This document shows, one piece after another, positions 6,221-26,017 of a stretch of DNA of 64,000 nucleotides. The DNA comes from Caldisericia bacterium (GTDB lineage Bacteria > Caldisericota > Caldisericia > JAAYUI01). A program made the position numbers and the translations under genes. The stretch covers positions 832,001 to 896,000 of the forward strand of contig OY771555.1 of NCBI GenBank assembly GCA_963674785.1, read 5' to 3'. A model generated the notes under the pieces. It saw only the letters and a list, made by a program, of their open reading frames with translations. It was not told the origin of the DNA and did no database searches. Numbering within the stretch: the first letter of the stretch is position 1; each line of letters opens with the position of its first letter.

Positions 6221-6278
6221 GCCTCCGAATAAGGTGATTCTATAATTCGCTTGCATCATCTTTCGGGTCTGATCCCCA

Positions 6279-6530
6279 CGCCATTCCAGGCAGTTTCTGA
6301 GTTCAGTTTACACTGAGTTTACCTACGTGCCAAGGGGTGACCCGGAATTTCTCCCCTCGTCATTCCCGTCCCGCATCATGCTTCGGCTAAGCTCAGCAAC
6401 CGTGCGGGATGACTGATCGGGAATCCAGGGTTACTTTTGACGTATGAATTCTCTATTCGATAACTCTTGATGTTGGAAAAATCATTTCACCAGACAAAAA
6501 CAAATTTGCTTTTTTATGCCCTAGACCCCG
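6279..6530. repeat. Cluster 1 of CGTC-tagged (REP/dRS3-like) palindromes with nested insertions
   Basis: CGTCATTCCCG...TGATCGGGAATCC and CGCCATTCCAGGC...TGACCCGGAAT units with CTTCG...CTCAG inserts; homologous in reverse orientation to 19562-19985. Confidence 0.85.
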
Positions 6531-6751
6531 GTCTTCACCCCTTAGCCTTGACATACAATCATGAAATGTTGAATGATGAGCATTATAGCATCTCTACACA
6601 GTCTATACTTTTTAATTTGTGACAAAACCTTAGACATAACCAGACGATTCACAACTTCATTTTTATGAAACAAAAACATTAGAAACTAATTTGCATTAAC
6701 AAGATTTTAGCATTATTATTCCCATATCCTAAATTCCTGGGGGTATGTAAA

Positions 6752-8176
6752 ATGCCAAAGAATGTAAAGCTGACTATTGCGATATTTGTTGCCGTTTTCT
6801 TGATTATTCCGATTACTGCTTTTCTGATAAACAAATCAAATTCTGAAGCAATATTTTTAAAAACTGGCTCAAAACACTCATCAAGGCCAACAATTGTATT
6901 AGACTCAAATGATAACCCTCATCTCTCGTGGCTTTCGAGTAGGCTTCATAACAGTTATTCATATGATGATTTCTCAATAAACTACATCAAAAAGGTTGAC
7001 GGGGAATGGGTTAACATTTCTGGCGAAAAACTCGAAAATAAAAACTCAGTAGTCATAAACAATATAGGATATGCTCGGAATGAAAACCTTATTCTGGATA
7101 AAGATGACAATCCACACTTTGTCTGGACAAATGAACATTACAATAGTCATGACGGATATACAGACATAAAATACATTATTGGAAAAAACGATAAATGGTT
7201 GCTTGCAGATGGTCAAAAAAATCACTCTGAATCAGGGGAGATGACAAAAGGGCTGATTGGTCAGGCACCAGTTTTAGCTGTGGATAATAATTGTAATCCT
7301 CATGTAATCTATTTTGGTGGTTTGGATGAAATGGACAGTAGTTTAAAGTATTCCAAGTGGGATGACATAGGCTGGGTTACGGCTGAGGGTAAAGTTTTAT
7401 CCGAAGAAAATATCAAAGATATTCCAATCTATCCAAGTTGGGAAAATTCATCAACAGCGATAAAAATAGACAAAAAAGGGAATCCTTGTGTCTCATGGAT
7501 CAGCAGAGGTAAACATGAACCATGGGGAGACCCACAAAAAAGGGCAGCATTTTTCATGAAATGGGATGGAAAAGATTGGTGCAATGCAGGTGGCCAAAAA
7601 TACGATGCAACTGAGAATCTTGAAATGTTCAAAATCGCTGTCATTGATTGCTACGGTGGTTTTCACGATCTTGAGCTGGATAGTAACGACAACCCTCATA
7701 TTGCCTGGTATGGAGATGCAGAAGAATATGGATTTTCACTGGAATATGGAAAATTATTTTACGCTAAATGGAATGGTGACGAATGGGTTGATATTAACGG
7801 AATTGACCAGAGCAATCAACGCATTAATCCATTCATATCAGGTCTAGGAAGATGGGGAATTGACAGCACATCATTTGTACTTGATTCTAATAACAACCCT
7901 CATTTTTTGTGGACACATGAAGGCAAAGAACTCCACTACTCGAAATGGGATGGTTCAAAATGGGTCAATATTAAAAAAGAAGAAAATACTAGAGAGAACA
8001 CAAATATCACAAAGTCAAAATACTATGTATGTAGCATTTCATTTGATTTGGATTCGAAAGATGATCCTTTCATAGTTTGGGGAATAAATGATTCTGTTCC
8101 AAATCTCAACAAGATCTGTTATCTGGAATGGAACGGCAAAAACTGGGTAACGGCAAATGGGAAGGTCTACAGATGA
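6752..8176 (+). CDS. Exported seven-repeat beta-propeller-like protein
   Basis: N-terminal hydrophobic anchor; seven copies of (L/V)DS..NPH..W...Y.KW(D/N)G..W. Confidence 0.7.
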   Translation: MPKNVKLTIAIFVAVFLIIPITAFLINKSNSEAIFLKTGSKHSSRPTIVLDSNDNPHLSWLSSRLHNSYSYDDFSINYIKKVDGEWVNISGEKLENKNSVVINNIGYARNENLILDKDDNPHFVWTNEHYNSHDGYTDIKYIIGKNDKWLLADGQKNHSESGEMTKGLIGQAPVLAVDNNCNPHVIYFGGLDEMDSSLKYSKWDDIGWVTAEGKVLSEENIKDIPIYPSWENSSTAIKIDKKGNPCVSWISRGKHEPWGDPQKRAAFFMKWDGKDWCNAGGQKYDATENLEMFKIAVIDCYGGFHDLELDSNDNPHIAWYGDAEEYGFSLEYGKLFYAKWNGDEWVDINGIDQSNQRINPFISGLGRWGIDSTSFVLDSNNNPHFLWTHEGKELHYSKWDGSKWVNIKKEENTRENTNITKSKYYVCSISFDLDSKDDPFIVWGINDSVPNLNKICYLEWNGKNWVTANGKVYR

Positions 8177-9183
8177 TAAAAAATTTCAGCATTGAAAAGA
8201 TTTCGATTAAACCGCTGGCAATTGGAGCAATTGTTTTCTTTTTAACCACTGTGATTGTTTACTTCACCATGGTCAACAACATTTTTGTCCCAGATGACCC
8301 TGCATATGTGAGTGATGAAATTCACAGTGCAAAAGATCCAAGAATAACACTCGATAGCTCTGATGTTCCATATATCTCATGGAATCAGGGGAATCCTGAA
8401 GAAACTGTTTATATCAGAAAAGATGGCAACAAATGGGTGGATGCTCCGGGAGAAATTGTTCCAGACCCAAACGGCAATGGTGTTTTTCATCTCCTGAGAA
8501 CTGAGAATAAAAATTCCAATATCAGTTATGATTATAAAAATCACAAACTAGAAACCCAATTTGAAAAAGACGGAAAAACCCAACATTTGTTCATCAATAC
8601 TAACCAAGATTTCATTATCACAGAGGCTATTGCAGTTGATTCGAATGAAAACCCACATGTAGTCTGGATTGAGTCATTAACAAAGAATCTTGATATCATT
8701 AAGCTAATCTATATAAAGTGGGACGGTAACGACTGGGTATATGGAGATGGTCAGAAATTTGATCCAGAAAACAAAAAATATCTAATAGATACTATAATGA
8801 CACGACATGGAAATCTTGAAATAATAATCGATCCAACTGATAAACCACACATTGTTTATGATGGAAATTACAGGGATCAAGACTCTGAATATGATTATGA
8901 ATCCTATAACTCAATTTATTATCTCAGATGGAATGGTCAGGACTGGGTAACGGCAGACGGAAAATCAATTGAAAATGGTATCGATAAAGGCTCTCTTATC
9001 ATCAATGATACAGGAATTGAACAGGTCGATTTTGCACTCGATTCAAGCAATTTCCCTCACATTGTCTGGGGCAGCTGGGTATATAACAAAGACCCGATAT
9101 ACGAGATAGGATTTGGCAGCAGGATTAAGTATGTCTTCTGGAATGGCAAAAACTGGGTGACAGCAAAGGGGAAGGGGTATTAA
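8173..9183 (+). CDS. Paralogous exported beta-propeller-like protein with fewer repeats
   Basis: ATG 8173 overlaps the upstream TGA (ATGA); same repeat; ends WNGKNWVTAKGK like the upstream gene. Confidence 0.7.
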   Translation: MIKNFSIEKISIKPLAIGAIVFFLTTVIVYFTMVNNIFVPDDPAYVSDEIHSAKDPRITLDSSDVPYISWNQGNPEETVYIRKDGNKWVDAPGEIVPDPNGNGVFHLLRTENKNSNISYDYKNHKLETQFEKDGKTQHLFINTNQDFIITEAIAVDSNENPHVVWIESLTKNLDIIKLIYIKWDGNDWVYGDGQKFDPENKKYLIDTIMTRHGNLEIIIDPTDKPHIVYDGNYRDQDSEYDYESYNSIYYLRWNGQDWVTADGKSIENGIDKGSLIINDTGIEQVDFALDSSNFPHIVWGSWVYNKDPIYEIGFGSRIKYVFWNGKNWVTAKGKGY

Positions 9184-9186
9184 GAG

Positions 9187-10089
9187 ATGAAGAAATTAAT
9201 TGGTATTGCTGTTTTGGCAATCCTTATTTTGTCTGTTGGGTGCGGAATGCCAAAATATTACCAAGAAGGCAGCATAAAATTTTTTGTAGATTTTGCAGTT
9301 CATGGAGTATTTAGTCAGTATTCACAGATGGAGGAGCAAGAAATATACGAACATATCCAGTTAATTGGTCAAAAATCTGATGAATTCTTGTTAACATTGC
9401 TCGATTCTGGCTCTACTATACCTAATGATCCCAAAATGTTAGGGAAATATGCCTGGATAACAATCTTAAGAAGCTGTTTGGATTTCGAGCAAGATAATGG
9501 ATTTGGTTCAAGTTTTGAAAATCCTGGAATATTTGGAGTATTCACAAGAGAGCTTGAAATAAAGTCAATTAATCGAGTGGTCGAATTAGGATATCTTCGG
9601 TATACTCCTGCTGAAAAAATTTTCGAGGAAGAAAGTGAACTAGATGAGATTTTGAGAATGTTTATCCCGTATGATAGGTCAAATTTTCCGGTATGGGAGG
9701 ATGAATCCTTTCGGGAAAAATGGGACATCTACACAAGCAATGAGTATTATGACGAAACAAAGAAAAAATCAGGGGAGCTTGCCGAAAAACTCTTGTCTGA
9801 AAAGGTTTTAAACTATAATGGCAGCGAAAAAATGAACAAAGATGAGGAGATTGAGTTTTTTCATGCACTCATCTTCAGATGGCAGTATGAGTTTGATAAA
9901 TTCAATGAATCTTTTGTCCCATTTGATAGTAATGGTCTTATCAATAAGTGGCAGGATTTCCTTATCAATGAGTTTAGAGATCGAGAAAACACGATTGAGA
10001 TAAGAGATATTGAATCCCTGAAGGCTTCCGTTGATTTGGTTTATGGATTAGATGTCCAGAGAGATACAATCAGAATTGATGAGAAGTAG
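9187..10089 (+). CDS. Hypothetical lipoprotein
   Basis: Lipobox-type signal MKKLIGIAVLAILILSVGC; 300-aa ORF. Confidence 0.65.
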   Translation: MKKLIGIAVLAILILSVGCGMPKYYQEGSIKFFVDFAVHGVFSQYSQMEEQEIYEHIQLIGQKSDEFLLTLLDSGSTIPNDPKMLGKYAWITILRSCLDFEQDNGFGSSFENPGIFGVFTRELEIKSINRVVELGYLRYTPAEKIFEEESELDEILRMFIPYDRSNFPVWEDESFREKWDIYTSNEYYDETKKKSGELAEKLLSEKVLNYNGSEKMNKDEEIEFFHALIFRWQYEFDKFNESFVPFDSNGLINKWQDFLINEFRDRENTIEIRDIESLKASVDLVYGLDVQRDTIRIDEK

Positions 10090-10153
10090 TAATCCCTGAA
10101 AACTAAATTCAACTTTGATTTCAGCTCAAGTCGCGTATGAGGTAAAGGACGAG

Positions 10154-11242
10154 TCAGGAATATTTGTTTAATAAACCTTTTTTCTCACAGAAGGTACCCG
10201 CCCAAGGATTGTTCAAGAAATTGGTAATCTGCTCTTCCTTTTTATTTTGTGAGAGGTTTATTTCGAATTCATCATATTCATTCAAGTCAAAATTCTCTCC
10301 GACTATTCTTGGGCTGGCTTCATCTTGTACAATATCATAGTATTGATTAAGTGAATCGAATGAACTTAAACCCCATCCTCCCACAATTGAACCATAAAAG
10401 AATGTATCAACCACATCGAGGATTGTTCCAAGAATGTATTCCCCATCAAAGTTATTCAAAACATATTCTAAAGTATAAGAGGTATATGTGCATATCTCTC
10501 CAATATTCTGGAAGGTTGTGCCTCCTGATTTACTGAATCTCCAAATCAAACCTTCTGCTTTATTCATTTCATCAAACATCTTTGGGCTTAGACCACTTTC
10601 AATATCGATTCTTATTGAGTGAATAAATTTTGAGGGATCCTTGTTTGTTTCAATTTCTTCTTGCAATTCATAAATCTTTTCTGCCACAAACATGTTTGCC
10701 TCAATCTGATCTATGATACCAGCCTTATCATATAACCCCTGCTTTTCCTTAATAGACACAAAAGGATGATTTAAACTGAAACTTTCTCCATCACACCTCA
10801 TATTCCAATAGCAAGTCCAGAATCCAGCATCCATAGCTACCTCAAAAAAACTGGTTTCATCAGAGTTATTGATACATTTATATCCTACATCAGGCAATGA
10901 TCTTGCGGTCAGATACCCCAGAGATGCACAGAACATAAACCTCTCTTTAGTTTCACCTGGAATCATATTTCTAAATCTTTTGAGGTTTTGTTTAGCAAAT
11001 TTGTCAATCTGGTTTTTATAGTCGTTGATAGTGTCTTTTTCTGAAAAATCTAGTTGTGATTCTTCAACAAAAACCTTAAGTGAATCATTTAAAGCATTTA
11101 CTACATCAATATTTTCATCAAGAGACACAAATATATTTTTTTCTGTATCAAAGGACAAATCATCTGGTAAACTAGCTTGTTCAGAACAGCCAGACAAAAT
11201 CAAGATAACTGCCAACGCCATTATAGTTATTCTTTTCAACAT
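10154..11242 (-). CDS. Hypothetical lipoprotein
   Basis: AGGAGG SD; lipobox ILSGC; 362-aa ORF. Confidence 0.7.
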   Translation of the reverse strand: MLKRITIMALAVILILSGCSEQASLPDDLSFDTEKNIFVSLDENIDVVNALNDSLKVFVEESQLDFSEKDTINDYKNQIDKFAKQNLKRFRNMIPGETKERFMFCASLGYLTARSLPDVGYKCINNSDETSFFEVAMDAGFWTCYWNMRCDGESFSLNHPFVSIKEKQGLYDKAGIIDQIEANMFVAEKIYELQEEIETNKDPSKFIHSIRIDIESGLSPKMFDEMNKAEGLIWRFSKSGGTTFQNIGEICTYTSYTLEYVLNNFDGEYILGTILDVVDTFFYGSIVGGWGLSSFDSLNQYYDIVQDEASPRIVGENFDLNEYDEFEINLSQNKKEEQITNFLNNPWAGTFCEKKGLLNKYS

Positions 11243-11319
11243 CCCAACCTCCTTGACTGCCGACTATTGTAATCCAAACGACCACAAAAACAACAATTAA
11301 AAATCATTAAGAGCCGATA

Positions 11320-11347
11320 TGAACCAAATGGGGTGCTTATACGTTTA
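11320..11347 (+). promoter_or_regulatory. Putative ECF-sigma promoter
   Basis: TGAACC-N16-CGTTTA just upstream of the SD for 11366; the motif recurs at four other gene starts. Confidence 0.7.
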
Positions 11348-11365
11348 ACTGTTAAGGAGGCAGGA

Positions 11366-12637
11366 ATGAATACTAGACTTTGCTTTGTTTTATCATTGAT
11401 TATTGTTTTATTGGTGTGTGTTTCTTGTACTTCAGTTGCTGGGGAGTCGGCGGGTGGAATTGCAAGTATTGAAATCCCCGAATCTGACATGGAACTTATG
11501 AATGAGTTATTCAGAGAAATTGACAACATTGATTTGAACTACAACCCAGGAAAGTATAAAGAAGCAGGTAAGCTTGAGAAACGCTGGGAAATTGATGGAT
11601 GCCCAACCTATGTTAATGCTGTGTATGGTGACTATATCATACCACGAAAAGAGGGATGGATTTTTTCGACATGGGACGACATTGATAACTACAATACTGG
11701 GGAATCAGAGCATCTAGCATTCATCACAAACCCTGAAAACGGTGAAAGATATGGTGATGATATTACAAAGTTTTTTGGATTGATATGCAATTCTGGAAAT
11801 AAGGAAGGATGTTTGAATTTCAATAAAAAACTCATTGAAAGCATTAATGACAAATATTATCTCATTCACCTCAAAAAAACCTATCTGGTAGATAAAAAAA
11901 CAAAAGAGATCAAGGCATCATTTAATCCGGGTGATAGAATAACTGTTTCACCAAAAAACAATCTTTATTCACACAATTTTGCGGTAGCCAAAAAAATGAA
12001 TCTGGACTTTCCAGATAAAAATGGAGAGATGCCTGGATTTTATGACGACATCTTCATGATTGATTCGAATATCTGGCTACACTATGGAAACGGTGCCTTG
12101 GGTCTGCTTGATGAAGATCTAAATTTGGTAACCAAACGTGAGTACCCAGACTCAATGGTTGACCTTGAAATTCCACACGACCTCAACAATATCCCAACAA
12201 TCCAGCTATTTAAAAACGGTGTCTATGAAGATTTCATCCTTGGTCGAGTTGTCAACTATGATGAGCTTCAGGAAAAATATGGAATAAATGTTCTATATTC
12301 TTATGAGTTTGAATACTCTTTATCAAATATGTATCCAATAGAAAACAAATTCGATATTCAAGAGTTTGTGCTCATCAACCCAAATACTCCTGATGTGAGC
12401 TACAGACTTGATAATGAAATATTGGGTGACCCAAACACCGTTTCAATCAAGTTGAAGAATCGTCACTTCATTGTTGAAAATGATGAAGTCCTCAAGTGCA
12501 TTGACCCATTTGAGGGGGAAGACATCTGGTGGGTCAGTCGAGATGATGTTGGAGAAAAGGCAAAGGTTATTTGGGCAGATGAAAGAGGAGTGTTGGTTTA
12601 TTCTCAGACAAATGGGAAGCTTTACTGTTTTGAATAA
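11366..12637 (+). CDS. Hypothetical lipoprotein (paralogue of 12674-13927)
   Basis: AAGGAGG SD before ATG 11366; lipobox CVSC; C-terminus LKCIDPF...WADERGVLVYS...KLYCFE. Confidence 0.7.
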   Translation: MNTRLCFVLSLIIVLLVCVSCTSVAGESAGGIASIEIPESDMELMNELFREIDNIDLNYNPGKYKEAGKLEKRWEIDGCPTYVNAVYGDYIIPRKEGWIFSTWDDIDNYNTGESEHLAFITNPENGERYGDDITKFFGLICNSGNKEGCLNFNKKLIESINDKYYLIHLKKTYLVDKKTKEIKASFNPGDRITVSPKNNLYSHNFAVAKKMNLDFPDKNGEMPGFYDDIFMIDSNIWLHYGNGALGLLDEDLNLVTKREYPDSMVDLEIPHDLNNIPTIQLFKNGVYEDFILGRVVNYDELQEKYGINVLYSYEFEYSLSNMYPIENKFDIQEFVLINPNTPDVSYRLDNEILGDPNTVSIKLKNRHFIVENDEVLKCIDPFEGEDIWWVSRDDVGEKAKVIWADERGVLVYSQTNGKLYCFE

Positions 12638-12673
12638 TCAAGCTATACTATACCTAACAGGAGGGAATGCAAA

Positions 12674-13927
12674 ATGAATAGAAAACTGTATGTGGGACTC
12701 GTCGTATCACTTATACTTGTGTGTCTTGCCGGATGTGGGATTGTCGCCAGCGAAAAACCAAAATACATCGGAATAGAAAAACCGGGATTCACACCTGATT
12801 ATCAAGAGCTAGTTGATACAATCATGGATGAAATAAACGTGGATGATTATAAATACTCTGAAACCACCTATTCCAAAACAGGAGCTTTATCTCAAAGATG
12901 GGTTATAGATGTGTCAGACGAGAAGGAAAGTGATTTAAATAAATTCAGTGCCCACCCATGCAAAAATGGCTGGGTTTTATATAACGGATACAGGGGAACA
13001 ACAACACTTATTGACCCCCTTGATGCAAACAACAAAACAGAAAACCCAGACAAATTCACAGACATTAGACCAGCCTATTTAGGTGAAGAAAAGACTGGGT
13101 TTACTATGGTAAAACCGATTATCAATGTTTTTGATTCATATCTATTTTATCATATTGGTTATAACACCTATATCTACAACACAGAAACAAAAGATTTGCT
13201 TTACGTTATGGCAAATATCAGAATCACTCGGACTAAGTTTTTTGTATATGAAGATAAACTATATCTAGTAAATGGACTGGATGATATCAGGGAATATTCA
13301 GTGATTGATTTAAAAGATGGAAGCACAGCGACAATAGATAATGTGAAACCACATGACAGCATCTACAACATCAGTGGAAATATCTGGATAAAAACACGTG
13401 ATAATAACCTCATCAAAATTGATACAGAAAACAATACCTTCTCAAATATTATCATGTCACTGGATGGGACAGAAAGCGTATTCGAAGATGTGCTTGCAAA
13501 GCTGTTTGATGCTGAACAATATGGAGACTATATCCTTGGCTGCACGTACACTCCGCTTGAACATGAATATGATGACAGATGGTTTCATAGAGGTGCGCAC
13601 TTCAATAGATTTGTTGAATACAATGACAAATACATCCCAAAAACAATTCAGACCTATTTCCTCATGAATCCAGAACACTGGAAGATTTATCATCTTGATG
13701 AAACTGTTCTTGGGCAAATGGATGCAAGAGTCAATGTTGTTGGTTCCCATTTCATCATTGAAAATGACGATGTTCTTAAGTGCATTGACCCATTCAAATT
13801 CGAGAAAAAGGAAATCTGGTGGATTGATAGAAGTGATGTTGGAGATGATGCAACCATACTTTGGGCAGATGAGCGTGGAGTATTGGTTTATAGTTTTTCA
13901 AACCAAAAACTTTATTGTTTTGAGTAA
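12674..13927 (+). CDS. Hypothetical lipoprotein
   Basis: GGAGG SD; lipobox LAGC; shares the conserved C-terminus with the previous gene. Confidence 0.75.
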   Translation: MNRKLYVGLVVSLILVCLAGCGIVASEKPKYIGIEKPGFTPDYQELVDTIMDEINVDDYKYSETTYSKTGALSQRWVIDVSDEKESDLNKFSAHPCKNGWVLYNGYRGTTTLIDPLDANNKTENPDKFTDIRPAYLGEEKTGFTMVKPIINVFDSYLFYHIGYNTYIYNTETKDLLYVMANIRITRTKFFVYEDKLYLVNGLDDIREYSVIDLKDGSTATIDNVKPHDSIYNISGNIWIKTRDNNLIKIDTENNTFSNIIMSLDGTESVFEDVLAKLFDAEQYGDYILGCTYTPLEHEYDDRWFHRGAHFNRFVEYNDKYIPKTIQTYFLMNPEHWKIYHLDETVLGQMDARVNVVGSHFIIENDDVLKCIDPFKFEKKEIWWIDRSDVGDDATILWADERGVLVYSFSNQKLYCFE

Positions 13928-14035
13928 CAAGAAAAAGCTGTAACCTTAACAAAAAATAAATCATAAAATGCTTTATCCGAGCTTGGCTGCATGATAGGCT
14001 CAACTATGGTAATCAAAGTGCGAAGGGGGAGTTAG

Positions 14036-15295
14036 ATGAAAAAGTTTGGTATCTCGGTTTTAGTAGCTGTTTTTTTGGTGAGTTTCCTTTTTTATAGTGG
14101 GAACATTGTTCTTTCAACTGAAAACAGTGATGTAGAAAATATCAAAGCGCCGTTTTCTTCATTCACAATTGCGTATCAGGTTGACCCAGATAATCCCGAT
14201 CCAAAGAGGGATAATGTCCCAATGATAGAGTATGACCCCAGTACTGGTTGGAGATTCTATAGAGTTGAATGGGTCAACAACGACAAAATTCAAATAACGC
14301 TAGACAAAAACGATAATAGGATTCAGCTCTCACCTCAAGAAGATGATTATCTGAAACAGCTAAACATGATTTTTCAAAAGAATGTTAGACTTCAATCAAC
14401 CACTGATATTGAGGCAGATAGTTTCAGTATTGTCTATTTTTGTGAACCTGAAAAAGGTGGGGGATGTGGATTCGACTCGCTACGTCGGCAACAATCCATA
14501 GGTTTTTCTAAAAGTGATGATGGAAAATTCTTTGGCGGTTCTGGCTCAACATCATGTATGGAAAATAGTTACTATATTTTTGATCCACAGGTTGGAACTC
14601 TACAGATTTATGATGACAGTCTTCAATTCGAACAATGGAAACTTGGTAATCACAGACATGTGCTTGATGTTAGAGAAGCTATTAATCCAGACATCAGAGA
14701 CATCGGAAGGATACATCAAATGCAAAACCATACACATGGTGTCTCAGTGGTTTCCGGTACAACTGCCTACAAAGGTTATATTGAATACTTTATAGATGAA
14801 GACTATTTCATCCTGAATGGTCAAAAATATAACTTCAGAGTTGATGATAGACTCAAAGAAATGGAGATTCCGAATTATAATTGTTGCAAACTCTACAAAG
14901 GTGAAGTGTTTGTTCCATTACGCTCATTTGCAGATTTAATGGGATTCGAATTTTCCTCAGGAGAATGGGGCAAAGACCAACCGTACATTGAATTCGATGT
15001 TTTTAGAAGCATTGACCAGAGAATCAAATTTGACTTGAATAGCAATCTAGTCAAAACAAGATACGGAGATGATTTTGAATTGCCACTTAAACCATTCATA
15101 AAACCGGATGATCCAGAGGCTCAATATGGATTATTTCAATTCATGGTTCCTCTCTATGCTCTGCTTGATAATCTTCCAAGGCATTATGGAAAAGGCTACT
15201 GGTACAGACCAATGAACAACTCAATTCTTATAAGCAGACTAATTGACCATGATGAATACAGAGATGAGAGGATACCAGTCCCTCTGCTTGATTAA
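14036..15295 (+). CDS. Secreted protein with divergent C-terminal stalk domain
   Basis: Signal peptide; VFVPLRSFADLMG and FMVPLYALLDNL motifs; similar to 24744-25904. Confidence 0.65.
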   Translation: MKKFGISVLVAVFLVSFLFYSGNIVLSTENSDVENIKAPFSSFTIAYQVDPDNPDPKRDNVPMIEYDPSTGWRFYRVEWVNNDKIQITLDKNDNRIQLSPQEDDYLKQLNMIFQKNVRLQSTTDIEADSFSIVYFCEPEKGGGCGFDSLRRQQSIGFSKSDDGKFFGGSGSTSCMENSYYIFDPQVGTLQIYDDSLQFEQWKLGNHRHVLDVREAINPDIRDIGRIHQMQNHTHGVSVVSGTTAYKGYIEYFIDEDYFILNGQKYNFRVDDRLKEMEIPNYNCCKLYKGEVFVPLRSFADLMGFEFSSGEWGKDQPYIEFDVFRSIDQRIKFDLNSNLVKTRYGDDFELPLKPFIKPDDPEAQYGLFQFMVPLYALLDNLPRHYGKGYWYRPMNNSILISRLIDHDEYRDERIPVPLLD

Positions 15296-15307
15296 TTCTT
15301 TTGACTC

Positions 15308-15337
15308 AAAGAGGCAACTCATGTTGCCTCTTTTTTT
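15308..15337 (+). terminator. Intrinsic terminator
   Basis: GAGGCAAC-TCAT-GTTGCCTC followed by T7. Confidence 0.85.
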
Positions 15338-15366
15338 AAGCCCTCAATATTTTTCTTTTTTCCCTT

Positions 15367-15395
15367 TTGCTAAAAATCATCTAAGCAGCTATACT
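15367..15395 (+). promoter_or_regulatory. Sigma70-like promoter
   Basis: TTGCTA-N17-TATACT upstream of 15448. Confidence 0.55.
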
Positions 15396-15447
15396 AAAAA
15401 CAAATGAAAAAAGCTCCGCACAAAAAAACCAGGAGAGAAGATAGCTG

Positions 15448-17406: not shown

Positions 17407-19459
17407 GGCTCTCATTATAATTGTCTTTAATGATATTGCCCCAAAATCCTCGATTGCAGGGCCTCGGGTTTGTGAACACAACTTTCATTTTTGGTTGAGT
17501 ATCCAGTGCTTCTAAAGCCAACATAGCAATGAGTTTTTCCTCAAAAAAAATAGGGTGTTCAACTCCGTTTATGGTAACTCTGTTTTTAGTTCTAATACTT
17601 TTTGTGAGTTTTAAAACAATAGAATTCTCGCTTCTACTGAAAACAATAGAGTTTATCAAATCATACCTTGATTTATCTATATCTCCAGCTGATTTATCAA
17701 TCGTTTGATATGTTGTGAATTTAACTAATAGCATTTTGAAAATATTACATGCAACCGAAAACAACTTATCTTTTCTTTCATCGGAAAAAAGATTTTTTAA
17801 AAATAATACATGCAAAAGCCTATTAAGCGATCGGAAAATACTTTTGAAATTTAAATGATTATTGTCTCTTATCTTTGAGTTGAGATATCTTAAAAAGTAA
17901 ACCATTGAATCAATAGGTAAAGTGCAATCATTAACCACATCTCTTATACTATTCATCTCAAAGATTTTAAGTATGGTGGTATCACTAAACCCGATGCAAA
18001 ACCCAGTATCCTTTTCTAACAGTTTTATTAGGTTAGCTCTACTTCTAAGACTTACTAAAGTATTTTTGTCGTAAAGTGTTCCGAAGTAAAAAGGGAAATT
18101 CATTAGATTATCTGGTCTGTAGAATTCATATGAGTTATCCAGTTTTTCTGAAAATAACATTTCTTCAACCCTTACAATACTGTTAAATTTATTGAATAAT
18201 ACAACTGTGGCATAAATCAAGAATTTTATTTTTGGAATACTAAGCAGTGATTCTATGAATTCTTGCTCAGTTTCGACTGGATTTGTTATAAACGATTTGT
18301 ATTCATTGTTAAGAAACTCAAAAAAATTATTTCTAAACCGCACTTTGCTTCGATTTGAATCTGAAAGCAGTTTTTCTATATTATTCTTTAAAAAATCAAA
18401 CCAATCTGAATCAACATGCTTCATCATTGTGATAAGAAAAAAATCGTGCTTATTCACCCCAGATTTTACTGCATAATAATCAATAATCAGTTTGTTGAGC
18501 ATCCTTTTTAGTTCTCTCGGTGTTTTTATTCTTATGCATTCAAAACTGATACCTCGTAAATAATTGTTGAATACTTTGGACTTATCTTCAATTGATTCAG
18601 GAGTTATTGAGATAAACTTATCATATAATTTATCAACTTCTTCACTGCTTTTAATCTCTTTTATAGGTATTTCGACTTGAATTATCTTATCAAGGAAATC
18701 TTTTCCATAATTTTCATTTTGTCCATGAAGCATTTTGCAAATATGTTTTTTATCATAGGCAACAACAAAATATGTGTTTTTAAAATCACATGCTGTCTTT
18801 AGAAGTCTTAGAACAACATTTAATTCTTCTTTATTCAATCGGTCAAGATTGTCTACAAAAACTATAATAGGTTCGACATCCGATTTTAATACATCATTGA
18901 TCTTCTTTTTAAGATGTTCTGCACAATCACAGAAATCATCAACAACTTTCGAAAGTTTTAGAGACAAGTTTTTCCCTAAAGATATTGAGTCAAAGATAAA
19001 TCGATAATTCTTGAAAGCTCTTTTTATAGCTTTCAGCTTTCTCTTTGTTTGAAAAAACTCTTTCGAGCTTTTCCAGGTTGTGGTTTCACTTTTCTCTCGT
19101 GCGATTAATCTGTAGTGATTCATCACAACTTTTTGAAAATTACTGAAAAAATAATTAGTTATCTGATCGATGCTTTTTACCATCCAAGGATCAAAATTCA
19201 CAATTATTGGTTCGGGTTTTTTATCTGATAGTTGCTCTTTAACAAGATTCAAAAGAGATGTCTTACCAGAACCCCACTCTCCCTCAATCCCAAAAACCGC
19301 ACTATCTTTGATTGGGTTACCATCATAATCAACCTGTTTTGTAGTATTTATAATGATTTCTTTTATATATTTTGCATAATCAGTGAATTCATATCTGTCT
19401 TCTGATTTTGTTTTTATAGCCGAGTCATGATCGGCTGCACCATCTCTATACTGGTTCAT
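17390..19459 (-). CDS. KAP family P-loop NTPase
   Basis: Walker A GEWGSGKTS, NFDPW, Walker B IVFVDNLDR, FLDKIIQV, TPRELKR; AT-rich; GGAGG SD. Confidence 0.88.
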   Translation of the reverse strand: MNQYRDGAADHDSAIKTKSEDRYEFTDYAKYIKEIIINTTKQVDYDGNPIKDSAVFGIEGEWGSGKTSLLNLVKEQLSDKKPEPIIVNFDPWMVKSIDQITNYFFSNFQKVVMNHYRLIAREKSETTTWKSSKEFFQTKRKLKAIKRAFKNYRFIFDSISLGKNLSLKLSKVVDDFCDCAEHLKKKINDVLKSDVEPIIVFVDNLDRLNKEELNVVLRLLKTACDFKNTYFVVAYDKKHICKMLHGQNENYGKDFLDKIIQVEIPIKEIKSSEEVDKLYDKFISITPESIEDKSKVFNNYLRGISFECIRIKTPRELKRMLNKLIIDYYAVKSGVNKHDFFLITMMKHVDSDWFDFLKNNIEKLLSDSNRSKVRFRNNFFEFLNNEYKSFITNPVETEQEFIESLLSIPKIKFLIYATVVLFNKFNSIVRVEEMLFSEKLDNSYEFYRPDNLMNFPFYFGTLYDKNTLVSLRSRANLIKLLEKDTGFCIGFSDTTILKIFEMNSIRDVVNDCTLPIDSMVYFLRYLNSKIRDNNHLNFKSIFRSLNRLLHVLFLKNLFSDERKDKLFSVACNIFKMLLVKFTTYQTIDKSAGDIDKSRYDLINSIVFSRSENSIVLKLTKSIRTKNRVTINGVEHPIFFEEKLIAMLALEALDTQPKMKVVFTNPRPCNRGFWGNIIKDNYNESPTHSS

Positions 19460-19498
19460 TTATCCTCCCAAATCGCACTTGTGTTCTCACAAACACCG

Positions 19499-19527
19499 AT
19501 TGTATTCCAGACTCACAAAGATTTCAA
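19499..19527 (-). promoter_or_regulatory. Sigma70-like promoter of the KAP NTPase
   Basis: Minus strand TTGAAA-N17-TACAAT. Confidence 0.6.
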
Positions 19528-19561
19528 TTCGATTTGAAAGAATAAATGTCGCTTTTGAAAA

Positions 19562-20145
19562 CCCGTCATTCCCGATCAAGTCGGGAATGACGGGGAGTGA
19601 CATTCCGGGTCAAGCCCGGAATGACGGGGAGAGAGAATGCCGGTCATGCTTCGACCCTTCGGCACGTAGGTAAACTCAGTGTAAACCGAGCTCAGAAACC
19701 GTCAGGCATGACGTAGCAAGAGAATATCTTTCTACGCATAATGACATCTTTTTCTCTATGTCTCTCCAGCGGAAGCTGGAAACCAGGGCATAGAAAGGCG
19801 TATTTGTTTTGTCCGGTGAAATAGTTTGACCATCATCAACAAATTCCCACAAAATATTTCATGCATCAAGAGTAACCCTAGATTCCGGGTCAAGCCCGGA
19901 ATGACGGGGGAGAGTATCCTCGATTACCCTTCAGTGCTTTGATAAACTCAGTGTAAACTGAGTTCAGGAACCGTGCGGAATGACAGAAGAAAAAGCACTG
20001 GAAAAACCAGTGCTTTGAGATTGTTTTTAGATTCTGAACCAAAAATCCTAGATGCCGCATCAAGTGCGGCATGACAGGGAGTGTTGTGCGGGATGATGTG
20101 TTTGGAATGAAGTGACAAGCTTTAACCCTCCCTCTTCAGGGAGGG
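19562..20145. repeat. Cluster 2 of CGTC-tagged palindromes with nested insertions
   Basis: ATTCCGGGTCAAGCCCGGAATGACGGGG occurs twice (19602, 19882). Also CCCGTCATTCCCGATCAAGTCGGGAATGACGGG, ATGCCGCATCAAGTGCGGCATGAC, and hairpins at 19992-20016 and 20126-20145. Confidence 0.9.
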
Positions 20146-20155
20146 CATTTATGGG

Positions 20156-20599
20156 TTATCCTTCCGTATGCAACAACTCCACCCCATTGCTTTTCAGCAC
20201 ATCTTTGACAATCTCACTGTGGGGATAATCATCTCTGAAATAGAGACGCTCAAGGTTTGGGAAGGTGTTTGCAATGACCTTCGCGCAGTGGTAACAGGGA
20301 AGGCATGTCACATAGATTTCTGTTATATCCTTCCTGCGTCCCTCATATCGGGAGATTGCATTGATCTCGGCATGAATGACAGGGCATTCCCAAAGCTCTG
20401 AACCAGAGGCAGTAAGTTCGCGGTTACAGGTTTCGCAATGTGGGGCACCAGAGACAACGCCATTGTATCCAGTCGATTTGATGTTTTTGTCAGAATCAAC
20501 AAGTATGCAGCCAACCTGACGACGAAGACAGGTAGACCTGGATGCGACCATCTCGGTGATTTTCATGAAATATGTTACTTTATCGGGTCTGTCTGTCAT
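20156..20599 (-). CDS. dCMP deaminase family protein
   Basis: RSTCLRRQVGC, TGYNG, HAEINAI and PCYHC zinc motifs; ATG 20599 overlaps the upstream TGA. Confidence 0.9.
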   Translation of the reverse strand: MTDRPDKVTYFMKITEMVASRSTCLRRQVGCILVDSDKNIKSTGYNGVVSGAPHCETCNRELTASGSELWECPVIHAEINAISRYEGRRKDITEIYVTCLPCYHCAKVIANTFPNLERLYFRDDYPHSEIVKDVLKSNGVELLHTEG

Positions 20600-22305
20600 G
20601 ATTTTGGATACCTCACAAGGATTGTTTTTGTAGCTGAATACCACTCAACACTTGCTCCGAGGTTATCGGTGATGAAGCGAACTGGAACAAGGGTTGAACC
20701 ACTGATGATCTGTGGTGGAGGGTCAACCGTGACTGATTTACCATTTACCTTTGCAACCTTTTGGCCGATCCACATCTCAACAATCTTTCCCTCAAGTTCG
20801 TATGTGACCTTGTAGGCGTTTCCGTCCCAGCCGATTTTTGCACCCAAAGATTCACCCAAAAATCTGAAAGGAACCAACGAGCGACCATCTACAATTGTGG
20901 GCGGAACAGGCATTGCGTCTTTCACATATTGGCCATTTATTGTGGCATCCTTGAATCCAACTGTCATGATGATTGTTGTAACCGGTGCGAAATTGATGCT
21001 GAAGCGGTAAGAGTATGTGTTGTCTGGATTTGGATTGACAATTGGGTCTGTGATTGGGTCAACACAAACAATATCGATTGGGTTGACACCATTTTTAAGC
21101 ATCACGCCATGAGTGAATGTGCCATCTGGATTGAGTGGAACCGGCTGACCATTGATTACAAGAGAGGAATTTGGTTCAACTTTGCCGGTTATCTCAAAAT
21201 ACTGTTTCCTTGTTACCTGTCCATCTTCAATATTGAAACTTGGTTCAATGAGGTTTGGCAACACTTTCACTTCAGCTGATGCATCTGATTCGATTCCGTT
21301 CTGGTCAACTGCTTTGATGATGTAGTAATATGTGATTCCATTTTGCACGTTCGGGTCTGTGTACTGCATCCCTGAAACAAAGAAATCTGTGATTGCCATG
21401 TCTGAGTAACCATCTGGATATGTTGCACGGTAGATATTGTATCCAACAACTGGCATACCACCAGATACAGCAACAACAGGATCCCAGAAAAGATGGACTT
21501 TGTTATTTCCGGGGTATGCAAAGAATGTCTCAACCTGTGGTGGTGGAGCAGAACTTGCAAGTACTGTCATTTTTACGGTGACATTTATAACCTTCTTGAC
21601 AGGGTCAGGGTCATTTGAAGAGACGATGATTGTTGCATAATAATCACCAGGTTTGAGGGTGGAGGCATCAACAAGCACGACAGTTGCTGTGCTTTTCCCG
21701 CCGTCAACCATTCCGTTTGCTGGGTCAAAGCTGAGCCAATCCTTGATGTTTGATGTTGCGACCTGAAGAAGGATTGGAACCTGCTGCATTCCTGCATTTG
21801 ATGAGAGGATAACATTGCCTCTGTAGAGCTGTCCCTGCACAAGATCATTGAGATTGATTGTTACAAGCACTGTTACAACGTCTTTACTGACGTTCTGAAC
21901 CTGTGTTGAAATCCAGCCCTGGTCACCAGTTGCTGCAATCTGAAGGTATTCTTCGCCAGTTACTGTACATGTGATTGTCCTTGTGAGACTGCCTCTGTTT
22001 GGAACGGTGCCAAAATCAAGATATGGCGGGTCAACAAGCATCTTTCCATTTGCTGCATATTTTCCTTCTGTGAGGGCTGATGTTTCCGGGGCATCTTGAT
22101 AGGTTTTTGACAGTGCAAACATTAATTTACCAATTCCTCTGTTGTATATACCGAGGTTTTGGCTTGACTGAGTCCCCTGTTTTACAAAAAACACCATCTC
22201 AGTTGCTGTCAGTTCTATGTTGCAGTCATCTGCCGCTGCCGTTGTGCCTGGAATAGTGGCAATAAGCATTATGGCGACTATTAGAATGATCAGTGGCTTT
22301 TTCAT
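20596..22305 (-). CDS. Secreted protein with BACON-like, fibronectin type III, Ig-like and stalk domains
   Basis: AGGAGG SD and signal peptide at 22305; FN3 motifs GYNIYR and YTDPNVQNGITYYY; stalk motifs SLVPFRFLGESLGA and TLVPVRFITDNLGA. Confidence 0.8.
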   Translation of the reverse strand: MKKPLIILIVAIMLIATIPGTTAAADDCNIELTATEMVFFVKQGTQSSQNLGIYNRGIGKLMFALSKTYQDAPETSALTEGKYAANGKMLVDPPYLDFGTVPNRGSLTRTITCTVTGEEYLQIAATGDQGWISTQVQNVSKDVVTVLVTINLNDLVQGQLYRGNVILSSNAGMQQVPILLQVATSNIKDWLSFDPANGMVDGGKSTATVVLVDASTLKPGDYYATIIVSSNDPDPVKKVINVTVKMTVLASSAPPPQVETFFAYPGNNKVHLFWDPVVAVSGGMPVVGYNIYRATYPDGYSDMAITDFFVSGMQYTDPNVQNGITYYYIIKAVDQNGIESDASAEVKVLPNLIEPSFNIEDGQVTRKQYFEITGKVEPNSSLVINGQPVPLNPDGTFTHGVMLKNGVNPIDIVCVDPITDPIVNPNPDNTYSYRFSINFAPVTTIIMTVGFKDATINGQYVKDAMPVPPTIVDGRSLVPFRFLGESLGAKIGWDGNAYKVTYELEGKIVEMWIGQKVAKVNGKSVTVDPPPQIISGSTLVPVRFITDNLGASVEWYSATKTILVRYPKS

Positions 22306-22321
22306 ACTCCACCTCCTATTG

Positions 22322-23104
22322 CTATTTTTCAATTTTTTCACACCTTACATTTTCTATACCGATTAACGCTTGTATTAGTTTATTCGTTTTTTCAAGATTT
22401 CCAGATGTGAAGAATTTCAGTTTACCGGTTTCACCAGTTTTGGGCAAATCCTTTGCAAGCGTTTCGATGCGGTTGCAAACAGCGATGCTTGTGTCGATAA
22501 TGTTTATACTATCTGGAAGGATTTTTCTGATACAATCATAAAGAAATGGGAAGTGTGTACATCCGAGGACTATCTGGTCAACGTCAGCAGTGATTACAGG
22601 ATCAAGGATTTCAGAAAGTCTTGCCTCTTTGCAGAAGCTAAGACTGATTGAATCATTTTCGACCCAATCAACAAGTTCTGGTGCTGGTATCACAATCACT
22701 TTTCCATGGTGACCATATTTTTCTTTTGTGTTTAAAAACTTTTCACCACGACTTGTGGCACGTGTTGCAAGCACTGCAACCCTACCTTTTTTTGTGGCAA
22801 GAAGAGCAGGTTTAACACCAGGTTCAACACCAACAAAGGGAATATCGGGATACTTTTCTCTGAGTTTTTCGATGGTATTTACACTTGCACTGTTACAAGC
22901 GACTACAATCATTTTTGCGCCTTTTCCAAGCAGAAACTCGGTGATTCTACTTGCCCGATTTAAAATGAACTCATCAGATTTTTCGCCCCATGGGCAGTTT
23001 GCTGAATCCGCAACATAGAGAAAATCAAAGTCGGGAAGCCTTTTTATAGCGTGTCTGAATATTGAAAGTCCACCAACGCCTGAATCAAAAAAACCAATTG
23101 ACAC
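22322..23104 (-). CDS. murI: Glutamate racemase
   Basis: FDSGVGG, VACNSA and LGCTHFP catalytic motifs. Confidence 0.95.
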   Translation of the reverse strand: MSIGFFDSGVGGLSIFRHAIKRLPDFDFLYVADSANCPWGEKSDEFILNRASRITEFLLGKGAKMIVVACNSASVNTIEKLREKYPDIPFVGVEPGVKPALLATKKGRVAVLATRATSRGEKFLNTKEKYGHHGKVIVIPAPELVDWVENDSISLSFCKEARLSEILDPVITADVDQIVLGCTHFPFLYDCIRKILPDSINIIDTSIAVCNRIETLAKDLPKTGETGKLKFFTSGNLEKTNKLIQALIGIENVRCEKIEK

Positions 23105-23105
23105 C

Positions 23106-24266
23106 TTATTCTATATCCTTGTCGTCAATGTGTCCTTCTGCTATTCGCTCATGGCTGTGTTCCATTTTTTCAGACATATCATGTGTTACTTTATCTATTT
23201 CATTGTCGGTGAATTTTGAACCGAGCTTTTGTGTGAGCATGGAGATTGCAAATGGGCCACTGACAAGAATATCCATGTGGAAATCAAGGATTCGATATAC
23301 AAGCAGGAATGAGCCAACAACGGCACCATCGACACCTGCGATTCCGCTGAAGAAAACTGCAGTTCCAACCTCAACTCCGCCGACAGCACCTGGTGTTGGA
23401 ACCCATGCTGTTGAAAGCTGGGCGATAACACCCATTGCGATTACTGCAAGCACGTTTGGGAATATTCCCAGAGCAACCAACACAAAATATGGCATGAGTT
23501 TTAAGATTGTCCATGTGATGATTGAATTGATGACTGCAAACGCGACAGCCCACTTGTTCCCTGAGAGCATTTTTCTTGCAGAATATCGGACTTCGTTTAG
23601 AACCTGCTTGCCTTTTTTGTAAAACTCGGTTGGAGTTTTTGAGTTTGTCCATTTCCTCAAAAGTCTGAATCTGGCAAGGAATTTGAACAGGAATGAAAAC
23701 CATACTGGATTCATGATGATTATGAATCCACCAACGACCAAAAGAAGGAATCCAAAAACTGTTACCAAAAACACAACATACTGGGCGGTCTCAAGATTAA
23801 GATTGAAACCGAATGGAATCATTGCAAAGATTATCACAACATAGATGATTCTGACAAGTACTGAGATAAGACCCTTTACAGTGACAAGTACCGTCCCTTC
23901 AGCAACTGAATATCCCTCATCGGTAAGAAACCACACCTGCATTGGCTGACCACCGGATGTTGATGGAGTCGTGTACTCGAAAAATAGACCCAGAAAGTAT
24001 ATCCTCATCATTCGCCAGTAGCTTGTGAACTTGCCCATCGCACGTGCTAAAAACCAGTGTTGGAAAGTCTCAAGCACAAATGATAGGATGTTTGTCAATC
24101 CAGCAATTATGATCAACCACCACTTGGCATTTTTTATTGTCTCCCATGCCTCAGTCAGGTCAAACCCCGATGTGTAGACAAGAATAATAAAAATAACAAC
24201 AAATGAGGCGATTCCGGCAAGAATCGACATAATCATAATGTTTTTGCGTTTATATTGCTTTGCCAT
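23106..24266 (-). CDS. UPF0104 / lysylphosphatidylglycerol synthase TM-region (flippase-like) membrane protein
   Basis: Multi-TM; TPSTSGGQP and PTPGAVGGVE motifs; start uncertain. Confidence 0.8.
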   Translation of the reverse strand: MAKQYKRKNIMIMSILAGIASFVVIFIILVYTSGFDLTEAWETIKNAKWWLIIIAGLTNILSFVLETFQHWFLARAMGKFTSYWRMMRIYFLGLFFEYTTPSTSGGQPMQVWFLTDEGYSVAEGTVLVTVKGLISVLVRIIYVVIIFAMIPFGFNLNLETAQYVVFLVTVFGFLLLVVGGFIIIMNPVWFSFLFKFLARFRLLRKWTNSKTPTEFYKKGKQVLNEVRYSARKMLSGNKWAVAFAVINSIITWTILKLMPYFVLVALGIFPNVLAVIAMGVIAQLSTAWVPTPGAVGGVEVGTAVFFSGIAGVDGAVVGSFLLVYRILDFHMDILVSGPFAISMLTQKLGSKFTDNEIDKVTHDMSEKMEHSHERIAEGHIDDKDIE

Positions 24267-24500
24267 AAATTGCTTTCTTTTATAAGTGCTTGAAATCGGA
24301 TTACTCGATTCTAGTCGCACACATGAATTGCATTTTACACACAATTGTTCTCAATTACAAATTCATGAGACAAACTTCGGTGAGTTTTGTTTCATTTAAG
24401 TATTCTCCATCCTAATTTGCATGCTCAGTATGTGGATACAGAGTGATGGGAGAAGTGGTTGAAAACTACATACTTCTTCAGTGCTTCCTCTGCCCTTTTA

Positions 24501-24625
24501 GGTCTTTCCAGCGTTCGCTGGAATCTAGGGCGTTAAAGAGCGAGTGTGTCAATGTCAAAAAAACAAATCAGTAAACAACAAGAATTGATGAATAGAATAA
24601 TAATCTCTGACCCAAAAGTAATAGA
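24501..24625. repeat. Degenerate palindrome plus conserved spacer of the same repeat family
   Basis: TTCCAGCGTTCGCTGGAATCTAGGGC...CAAAAGTAA resembles 19765-19880. Confidence 0.55.
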
Positions 24626-24677
24626 TTTTATGATTTGACACTTTAACGAGGTTTTTTGGTAATCAAATAATGACAAT

Positions 24678-24705
24678 TGAACCAAACAATAATTTTAATC
24701 GTTTC
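24678..24705 (+). promoter_or_regulatory. Putative ECF-sigma promoter
   Basis: TGAACC-N16-CGTTTC upstream of 24744. Confidence 0.7.
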
Positions 24706-24743
24706 AATTATTGAATACAGAACTTATTTCACGGAGGGATTCG

Positions 24744-25904
24744 ATGAATTTAAAAAGATTTTTGGCGGTTGTTTTGTGTGTTTTGATTGTTGCGTCATTA
24801 TTCAGCATAAGCATCTCTGCAAACGAAGAGGGAATCGAAAGCGCTCTTGCTGGTGATTTTACGGCTGAAGCGTTTTATAATTTTTGCGATGATACTAAAA
24901 ACAAAGTTACTTTTGATCCTATTCCTATTATAACGTTCAAACATGATCAAGTATTGATTACAAAAGTTGAGGAAACATCAGATGAAAATGGAAAATATCA
25001 CAAGCCGGTTACAAAAGATGGTAAGCCTGTGTACATAAAACCTAGTGATGATTACTACTATGAAAATATGATGGAAATTCTGCAAAGTAACCTAACTGCA
25101 ATTGTGGAATCTGATGCTCGAATCAATAACTTATTCATAGCAATGAAATTGAAAAATGAATCAGGTAGAGGTCACCACTTTACTGCAGCGAAGATGATTA
25201 AGAGTCAAAAAAACGAGCTTTACAAAAAATATAGTTACAGTGATTATATATTTGAAGAACATCCATTGTTTGGATTATCACCTGGATCAATAATCATTTA
25301 CGACTCAAATCTAAACTTCAATGTTTATGATGTGAAAACTGGTGAATTCAGGCTTGTAGAATCAGGATGTGTTAACCCTGATATTTACAGAGATAAAGAA
25401 ACATTGCATCTTCAGTATCCTGAACTTCTTTGGTTCCTTGATGAGATGTATTTACCTCCAAATTATGGTTACCTAGAATTGTTTGATGGAGAGAGGAATA
25501 TCATAACCGATGGAGAGGGAACAAGATCAGACATCAATTTCAAGGTAATTGATGGTATTCCAACAATTGAAAACTACTATACATTAGCAAGTATCCTAGA
25601 TATGAGAGCTTCATTGCCAGATGATAATGGAGTGATTAGGTTCTACAAATTGTTAGATGATCCATCAGGAGATGATTTCTATAGGATACTTGAAATACAG
25701 GAAAACTCAAAAGAAGCTAAGATAATCACAGCAGATGGTGAAAAAGAATTTGAGCTTTCCTTTGCACCATATCCAAAAGATGAAAAGAAGAAATGGTCAA
25801 CTCACATTTACCCTCTTCTTGATATCCTAAATGCACTTCAAATCACATACCATTACCCCCGATGTGATGGAAGTATTCTTATTTCTTTGAATAAAGGATG
25901 GTAG
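24744..25904 (+). CDS. Secreted protein, paralogue of 14036-15295
   Basis: GGAGG SD, signal peptide; shared G.(I/L).IYD..L.F, NPDI and SILIS motifs. Confidence 0.7.
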   Translation: MNLKRFLAVVLCVLIVASLFSISISANEEGIESALAGDFTAEAFYNFCDDTKNKVTFDPIPIITFKHDQVLITKVEETSDENGKYHKPVTKDGKPVYIKPSDDYYYENMMEILQSNLTAIVESDARINNLFIAMKLKNESGRGHHFTAAKMIKSQKNELYKKYSYSDYIFEEHPLFGLSPGSIIIYDSNLNFNVYDVKTGEFRLVESGCVNPDIYRDKETLHLQYPELLWFLDEMYLPPNYGYLELFDGERNIITDGEGTRSDINFKVIDGIPTIENYYTLASILDMRASLPDDNGVIRFYKLLDDPSGDDFYRILEIQENSKEAKIITADGEKEFELSFAPYPKDEKKKWSTHIYPLLDILNALQITYHYPRCDGSILISLNKGW

Positions 25905-25934
25905 TACAAAATTCTGTTGAATGAAAAACACTGT

Positions 25935-26017
25935 ATTCCGGGTCATCCTTCGACAGGCTCAGGAACCGCTGGGAATGAAAGTAGGAAATCTTCATGCTGA
26001 ATCGAGTTCAACATGAA
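25935..26017. repeat. Cluster 3 palindromes with loop insertion
   Basis: ATTCCGGGTCA[TCCTTCGACAGGCTCAGGAACC]GCTGGGAATGA, then TTCATGCTGAATCGAGTTCAACATGAA. Confidence 0.8.

Follow-up and report, generated by a model that had tools for sequence, protein, structure and literature searches.

We examined a 64,000-bp stretch of a Caldisericia bacterium genome (assembly GCA_963674785.1, contig OY771555.1; hereafter the window), which covers positions 832001–896000 of a single-contig genome of 2.23 Mb and 92% completeness (G000, contig C1). Within it, small CGTC-tagged hairpins, here called hosts, carry in their loops a second hairpin of 22–23 bp with a GGT tag, the inner element or E2. The joint between the two follows a recurrent geometry, with the tag end of the inner element against the host stem, a loss of zero to three loop bases and no sign of target duplication. 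Outer hairpins of this CGTC-tagged, NTS-like kind and their nuclease family have been published, as have insertion sequences (IS) that target repetitive extragenic palindromes (REPs). The inner family, the UPF0213-like clade of GIY-YIG nuclease genes that goes with it, and the cross-family geometry of loop nesting are apparently new. With middling confidence, we read the nests as the product of a few structure-biased insertions into the loops of CGTC hosts, followed by passenger copying and recombination of the resulting composites.

Every nested structure listed in the initial annotation is present: five filled hosts, four empty ones, a palindrome within a palindrome within a palindrome, and a further piece inside the second element of one filled host (Table 1). 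The annotation had placed a clean insertion between T(C/T)A and G of the host loop. The site stands but the cleanness does not, as TCA-A-G becomes TCA-(22 bp)-G with the loss of one base, or of two if the G is counted to the element. The arms of filled hosts frequently mismatch each other. A genome-wide collection by pattern and by eye, compared with the empty hosts, yielded 22 filled hosts, several of them badly decayed, in three junction classes and with no target duplication. Eighteen are joined as in the window, one keeps its loop intact and holds the element against the other arm (G000 732330), and three lie in a host with a 4-nt loop (G000 504950, 517329 and 563339). All but one of the 22 fall outside open reading frames of at least 150 amino acids. 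A scored scan of the genome returned 15 matches, 10 of them inside host loops; the other five sit at chance level, given 5–8 matches in three Markov shuffles. Thus, the nesting does not arise by chance, and no free copies rise above it. In minimum-energy folding, 6358–6429 clearly keeps its nested stems and is alone in doing so; the folds of the decayed composites departed from the nested drawing.

The inner piece also behaves as a separate mobile element, as had been supposed. It is free-standing in phages and in many phyla, and it is absent at the orthologous site (25943–25967) of a close relative. There, a contig from another study (run X1) connects 25942 with 25968, the shorter flank matching over at least 83 bases; the relative's site thus lacks the 22-bp element. 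Comparison with genomes G001–G005 gave no usable orthologous sites; genes are 66–73% identical and neighbors differ.

Read on the other strand, the host consists of an unpaired CGTC or TGTC tag, an 8–9-bp stem starting with AT, a 4–5-nt loop and a CCA-like tail. In tag, stem, loop and tail it matches the published description of CGTC-tagged REPs (Di Nocera et al. 2013, PMC3733652), in agreement with the annotation's remark that such palindromes are known. An unbiased genome search found about 54 empty hosts with a 5-nt loop, 33 of them perfect and 16 with one mismatch. Over all loop types, G000 holds 68 hosts, dispersed, mostly intergenic and often arranged as inverted dimers. Three single-domain GIY-YIG genes of ~95 amino acids are flanked by hosts (at G000 302680, 787262 and 732742, the last one frameshifted); we call them Ssn-like, after the Ssn nucleases (Chenal et al. 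2025, PMC11893778). The third (G000 732742–733025) has its frameshift near the end, and a decayed nested composite lies ~400 bp upstream of it. Counted as single-domain GIY-YIG genes of fewer than 150 amino acids between host repeats, there are three in G000 and one each in G001 and G003. The genome contains two exact and six near matches to the NTS, one exact copy standing directly behind an Ssn-like gene. The published SRM string matches 35 times in G000 against 0–6 in shuffles, with none of the matches among the 5-nt-loop hosts of the window; the window as a whole has no match to it, and the GGT tag of the inner element fails the required GTC. Against the PDB, the Ssn-like proteins returned no relative at E 0.01.

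From its tag, the inner element reads GGT, a 4-bp stem and an 11–12-nt loop in which GA at both edges encloses a small inner pair. With an exact 20-base pattern it was found at 29 viral loci and at 123 GTDB loci from 2 of 64 parts, which by extrapolation from those two parts gives an estimated ~4000 GTDB stretches. The taxa include Bacteroidota, Actinomycetota, Spirochaetota, Fibrobacter, Chloroflexota and others. Copies have unrelated flanks and occur singly, as inverted pairs, as period-23 tandem arrays, and in frame inside genes; single copies stand in phage genes, and the ends of the element are constant across phyla. In 149 unique sites the bases before and after the element are uncorrelated, and a one-base target duplication is thereby ruled out. 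Nor does the element show the traits of a miniature inverted-repeat transposable element or of a REP-targeting IS, namely terminal inverted repeats, target duplication and a cognate transposase.

The third piece, E3, belongs to the same GGT-tagged family: it has a longer tag and the same core as E2, and it is free-standing in three of three viral contigs. Three of the five window copies carry it (6292, 19647 and 19927), those at 6292 and 19927 apparently without a matching second half of E2. Inside E3, the copies at 6292 and 19647 hold an 8-bp piece, whose matches elsewhere are chance-like and have no meaningful context. Within the phylum, an element joined to a host arm occurs in two of 93 genomes, G000 and G003, which suggests that the inner element arrived laterally. 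A viral scan for the same combination gave two matches, both chance-like. A further case of nesting was noted at L088:750–800, where a family hairpin holds, twice, an 18-bp insert of yet another type.

Translated, in-frame copies were seen at loci L073, L359, L093, L043, L031 and L049, in a Winogradskyella protein, in phage proteins and in a putA-like gene. The last resembles a gene that we take to be putA of Microbacterium, with two separate inserts at one loop. Of 20 putA-like loci, five could be parsed; four are empty and one has a separate family-like insert. For the element in a putA-like gene the net gain is 18, so that a coding site, too, shows a small target loss. Among phage pairs, two have both members filled at the same site, and a third, too divergent for an exact junction, shows a net +15.

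A GIY-YIG frame lies in two of the 152 element loci, and one of these genes (L100) has family hairpins on either side of it. Clade 2 was sampled through the best 80 of 436 metagenome relatives of the L100 protein. A GGT-tagged hairpin occurs within 600 bp of the gene in 39 of the 80 clade-2 loci, against 0.55 in shuffles, and a tag-free, stem-closed core in 72 of the 80, against 0.25; of 48 full-length loci, 24 have it both upstream and downstream of the gene. The 129 distinct hairpins, collected with no pairing requirement, have 87% of stem positions paired versus 40% when shuffled. Of the upstream hairpins 37 of 46, and of the downstream ones 56 of 64, have the tag directed away from the gene. 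No clade-2 gene has a CGTC host beside it (0/80), and no Ssn-like locus an inner-family core (0/5), a reciprocal control that rests on five Ssn-like loci, viral contigs having given no Ssn relatives. One of the six seed peptides was derived from the repeat itself and is encoded by none of the loci. Among 25 element-bearing genomes, eight have a clade-2 match, and all seven matches of at least 50% identity are flanked by family hairpins. The gene was not found in G003.

Clade-2 proteins share on average 31% and at most 39% identity with the local Ssn-like set (SsnA itself was not compared), versus 74% within their own clade, and their nearest solved relatives are UPF0213 proteins. Judged by sequence against these local Ssn-like proteins, the cognate gene of the inner family would lie outside the Ssn clade. 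The annotation's suggestion of a nuclease flanked by either repeat is therefore borne out twice, with Ssn-like genes beside hosts and a second GIY-YIG clade beside the inner element. At L100:300–820, direct repeats of four family hairpins each, spaced 400 bp apart, enclose the unit that contains the clade-2 gene. Many clade-2 genes at L189–L268 have reading frames that continue through their own arrays of hairpins, which gives their proteins long low-complexity tails.

We then considered whether the loop position is targeted, and found that it is, in part. At 119 unique GTDB sites, five copies lie in a perfect stem of at least 7 bp against 0.7 expected, the tag end flush with an arm in all five; another 12 lie in cores of their own family, a class that has no control; and ~85% of the sampled copies fall outside both. 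The flush geometry appears in five unrelated hairpin types, non-CGTC hosts included. In G003, another member of the genus, all five copies sit in host loops, with the loop intact and on the other strand. In the Bacteroidales genome G041, the junction of the window recurs in nine of 38 copies, in eight combinations of arm and loop; the loops and stems are unlike those of the window, and comparison of empty and filled sites reveals the same one-base loss. The loss in G044 amounts to two or three loop bases, and the flush tag end is also seen in G003, G041 and G044. What stands of the proposed loop-targeting is thus a non-random junction that recurs in G003 and G041, while strict specificity gives way before the counts in stems and family cores. 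The loop-targeting mobilizer that the annotation inferred to be encoded elsewhere did not come to light in this genome either: in the 92% complete G000 we found no clade-2 nuclease, no RAYT/IS200 (PF01797), no IS110 (PF02371) and no four-helix-bundle IVS protein, and DUF559 only within two frames of ~1240 amino acids.

The differing host stems had been taken as a sign of independent events, and this argument finds no support. In G043, and likewise in G044, six of six fetched loci are one identical composite copied whole. A host-in-host composite exists in G000 without the inner element (513051, 555378, 514432, 584555 and 829691) and in filled form at window 6358; in the five empties the outer arms covary and four share one odd junction, so stems are apparently rewritable after a composite has formed. 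Two or more arm mismatches mark eight of 15 filled hosts versus five of 54 empty ones (hand tally; Fisher p = 0.0006), and in some filled hosts the arms derive from stems of different type. E3 and the 8-bp piece recur as a cassette in three different shells. Four of the five G003 copies have nearly the same arm behind the element and a variable other arm, and partial duplications and deletions occur inside composites (G000 812421 and 807309). Given copies outside hairpins, passenger composites and mosaics, differing stems are no proof of independence, and not all copies are independent. Several events are nonetheless indicated by the three junction classes, by inner stem variants that equal free variants elsewhere, by the double host in empty and filled form, and by recurrence in unrelated genomes.

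For the few structure-biased insertions followed by passenger copying that we favor, a path can be sketched, each enzymatic step of which we infer. By analogy with SsnA on the NTS, the clade-2 nuclease would bind the GGT hairpin in single-stranded DNA and cut just 5′ of the tag. The released piece would end at the base of the stem, an end that exonuclease trimming or, within a 23-bp tandem array, the following cut could produce. The joining itself may take place at a 3′ end formed where the stem of a host hairpin meets its loop; SbcCD is reported, in a review, to cut at this place, and an sbcD gene is present in G000. Composites would subsequently spread with the host family and recombine, and filled hosts would remain Ssn substrates because SsnA tolerates loop extensions. 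Since the second nuclease was not found in the genome, the nests here are likely relics.

Several observations weigh against this reading. A clade-2 match is absent from 17 of the 25 element-bearing genomes (many of them incomplete, and searched with one query), and the gene was not found in G000 itself, at 92% completeness. The flush rule is broken where the element entered family cores and, in G043, once in a stem arm. Conversely, every convincing copy in G000 and all five in G003 sit in host loops, where a mild bias predicts fewer; this fits only if passenger copying dominates or free copies have been purged. SsnA has been shown only to cut. Finally, the empty orthologous site is a single one, known from one contig (depth 4.6) that leaves the intervening letters unstated, and a later deletion could account for it.

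A more general form of the idea is tentative: small GIY-YIG nucleases would move their own hairpins, the UPF0213-like clade releasing 22–23-nt pieces that are joined into opened loops, so that families nest in layers. Somewhat less plausible still is that a dedicated loop-targeting enzyme, possibly the clade-2 nuclease acting in strand transfer, inserted the element site-specifically and independently into each filled host. One junction common to 18 copies across many host stems, with several covarying inner stems, speaks for such an enzyme, as do the occurrence of the double host with and without an insert, the G041 junction with its eight arm and loop combinations, and the one orthologous empty site. 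It is hard to reconcile with the ~85% of sampled copies outside hairpins, with the 29 of 38 G041 copies that are not flush in a loop, with a junction class that differs between G000 and G003, and with a target loss that varies from zero to three bases; no candidate recombinase was found in G000, and passenger amplification is observed.

We regard as equally doubtful the opposite extreme, in which each junction class (three here) goes back to one founding insertion and loops are not truly preferred. Later recombination and template-switch correction of arms would supply the variety, and similar junctions elsewhere would reflect either an old composite moved between lineages or a tolerance of loop insertions. 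Mosaic arms in eight of 15 filled hosts, the shared arm behind the element in four of five G003 copies, the covarying outer arms of a composite with one odd junction, and the cassette in three shells all fit a single founder per class. The agreement of inner stem variants with free-standing ones from other genomes does not, nor do the flush geometry in five unrelated hairpin types and the recurrence of the junction in G041 on other loops and stems.

Template switching without any cut donor seems improbable. Here a polymerase would stall at the host loop, copy a nearby GGT hairpin and return, and nucleases would shape only where hairpins persist. The partial duplications and deletions in composites, the small target losses and the period-23 arrays are what such a process might leave; against it, the junctions have no consistent microhomology or duplication, the ends of the element are constant across phyla, and single copies stand far from other copies, in phage genes. 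An assembly artefact or chance is hardly credible: although short repeats are prone to misjoining, independently assembled short-read contigs from two runs of one sample (possibly the source sample, and so not independent biology) show 0 differences from the window over 6100–19686 and 19666–26050, the copies differ among themselves, and shuffles lack such structure.

Table 1. Hairpins and inserted pieces in the window, in window coordinates
Feature	Position	Strand	Remark
Filled host hairpin, tag on + strand	6279–6348	+	1 arm mismatch
Parts of this host	6279–6282; 6283–6290 / 6341–6348; 6338–6340	+	Decayed tag; arms; residual loop
Inner composite	6292–6337	+	Left half of GGT-tagged element, E3 (long-tag member) and 8-bp piece
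Three-level nest	6358–6429	+	Outer host (tag 6358–6361, tail 6425–6429), in it opposite-orientation host 6368–6414, in it inner element
GGT-tagged inner element E2	6379–6401	-	6-nt inner-loop variant
Empty host	19564–19592	.	Tag at both ends
Empty host	19602–19626	-	8-bp stem, 5-nt loop
Filled host	19637–19713	-	Arms mismatched
E2	19647–19700	-	E3 breaks its apical loop
E3	19655–19687	-	Long-tag member of E2 family
Fourth piece, 8 bp	19662–19669	.	Inside E3 loop; 3 genomic copies
Host variant, 4-nt loop	19757–19788	+	Inward partner in dimer ending 19906; read from sequence
Empty host	19882–19906	-	With tail
Decayed filled host	19916–19985	-	4 arm mismatches; E2 and E3 at 19927–19972
Empty host	20052–20076	-	Variant stem
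Filled host	25935–25980	-	2 arm mismatches
E2	25946–25967	-	Intact 22-bp copy
Decayed empty host	25995–26017	-	Read from sequence

The composite at 6292–6337 has decayed through C-to-T and G-to-A changes, and a similar composite lies at G000 807309. Host repeats are crowded: 56 of the 68 fall within 400000–1000000 of G000, a 600-kb span that includes the window, and none lies before 0.2 Mb or beyond 1.4 Mb. The minimum of the cumulative GC skew (694 kb) and the densest cluster of DnaA boxes (652 kb) both lie inside this host-rich span, so the repeats crowd around the likely origin. Another dispersed hairpin family, with CCCTCCCT arms and ~10 copies, shares the same intergenic clusters (window 20119–20143 and G000 807025, 733075, 734815 and 829940), and its loop often holds a second hairpin. 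A gene for a KAP-family P-loop NTPase (window 17390–19459) adjoins the repeat cluster; the gene that follows the deaminase gene differs in G001, G002 and G003, so this slot looks variable. In the close relative of run X1, 10905 is joined to 15128 via 50 other letters, and the relative thus lacks ~4.2 kb carrying three frames of 417–434 amino acids. An Rfam scan of window 6000–26200 gave 0 matches at the gathering score.

In the nests, targets of known sequence occur both empty and filled, which makes it possible to read off where the moving unit begins and stops and to set this against the cut site of a nuclease. Its ends delimit 22–23 nt, with the tag end flush, the tail end at the base of the stem and zero to three target bases lost, and the joints provide a testable footprint of how tiny repeats spread. 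The second pairing of nuclease and hairpin proposes a testable activity for the UPF0213-like clade and a further specificity among nucleases of single-stranded DNA, and in-frame copies of the element add short peptides to proteins across phyla. If nucleases are indeed the movers, the inner element would be a transposase-free mobile unit near minimum size and would explain how tagged palindromes multiply without a transposase; hairpin families of different nuclease clades would then parasitize each other and ride on the spread of the host family. Literature searches, exact 15-base strings included, found no account of the nesting, of the inner family or of the nuclease clade that goes with it, within a coverage that leaves out most subscription journals and supplements.

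Small dispersed repeats of cyanobacteria, which Elhai and colleagues reportedly described in 2008, are said to be mobile, to measure ~20–60 bp and also to enter genes.

Insertion sequences that target REPs (ISPpu9, ISPpu10, ISPa11, IS621 and IS1397) resemble the nests in placing a mobile element at a fixed position of a palindromic repeat; they are full elements with their own transposase, often with direct repeats (PMC1525189, PMC3184786). In contrast, the insert here is 22–23 bp long and noncoding, with no signal of duplication, with target bases lost and with no IS110 gene found. REP/RAYT systems (REPtrons), as outlined in PMC3733652, likewise consist of tagged hairpins of single-stranded DNA with a structured loop that flank a small nuclease gene and form dimers and arrays, but their tag is GTAG and their enzyme an HUH tyrosine transposase, whereas here the tag differs and PF01797 was not found.

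The CGTC-tagged REPs of Di Nocera et al. (2013) share with the host the CGTC/TGTC tag, the AT stem start, the 8-bp stem, the 5-nt loop, the CCA-like tail and the head-to-head dimers. That paper reports some REP dimers inserted within other palindromes and no transposase associated with the repeats, and gives the spread of CGTC-type palindromes as an open question; unlike the nests here, a second element inside the loop does not feature in its accessible text. The NTS/SRM–Ssn system of Chenal et al. (2025) comes closest to the host in its outward tags around a single-domain GIY-YIG gene of ~95 amino acids and in its exact NTS copies in G000, although the 5-nt-loop hairpins of the window do not fit the published SRM string. 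SsnA binds a hairpin while the DNA is single-stranded, cutting a few bases 5′ of the tag and accepting loop extensions; Ssn nucleases are presented in that work as cutting enzymes, with mobilization not shown, and its accessible text describes neither nesting nor mobility. The inner family departs from this system in its GGT rather than GTC tag, its 4-bp stem, its structured 11–12-nt loop and a nuclease clade of 31% identity, and shares with it the Ssn-type layout of hairpin, gene and hairpin with the tags outward.

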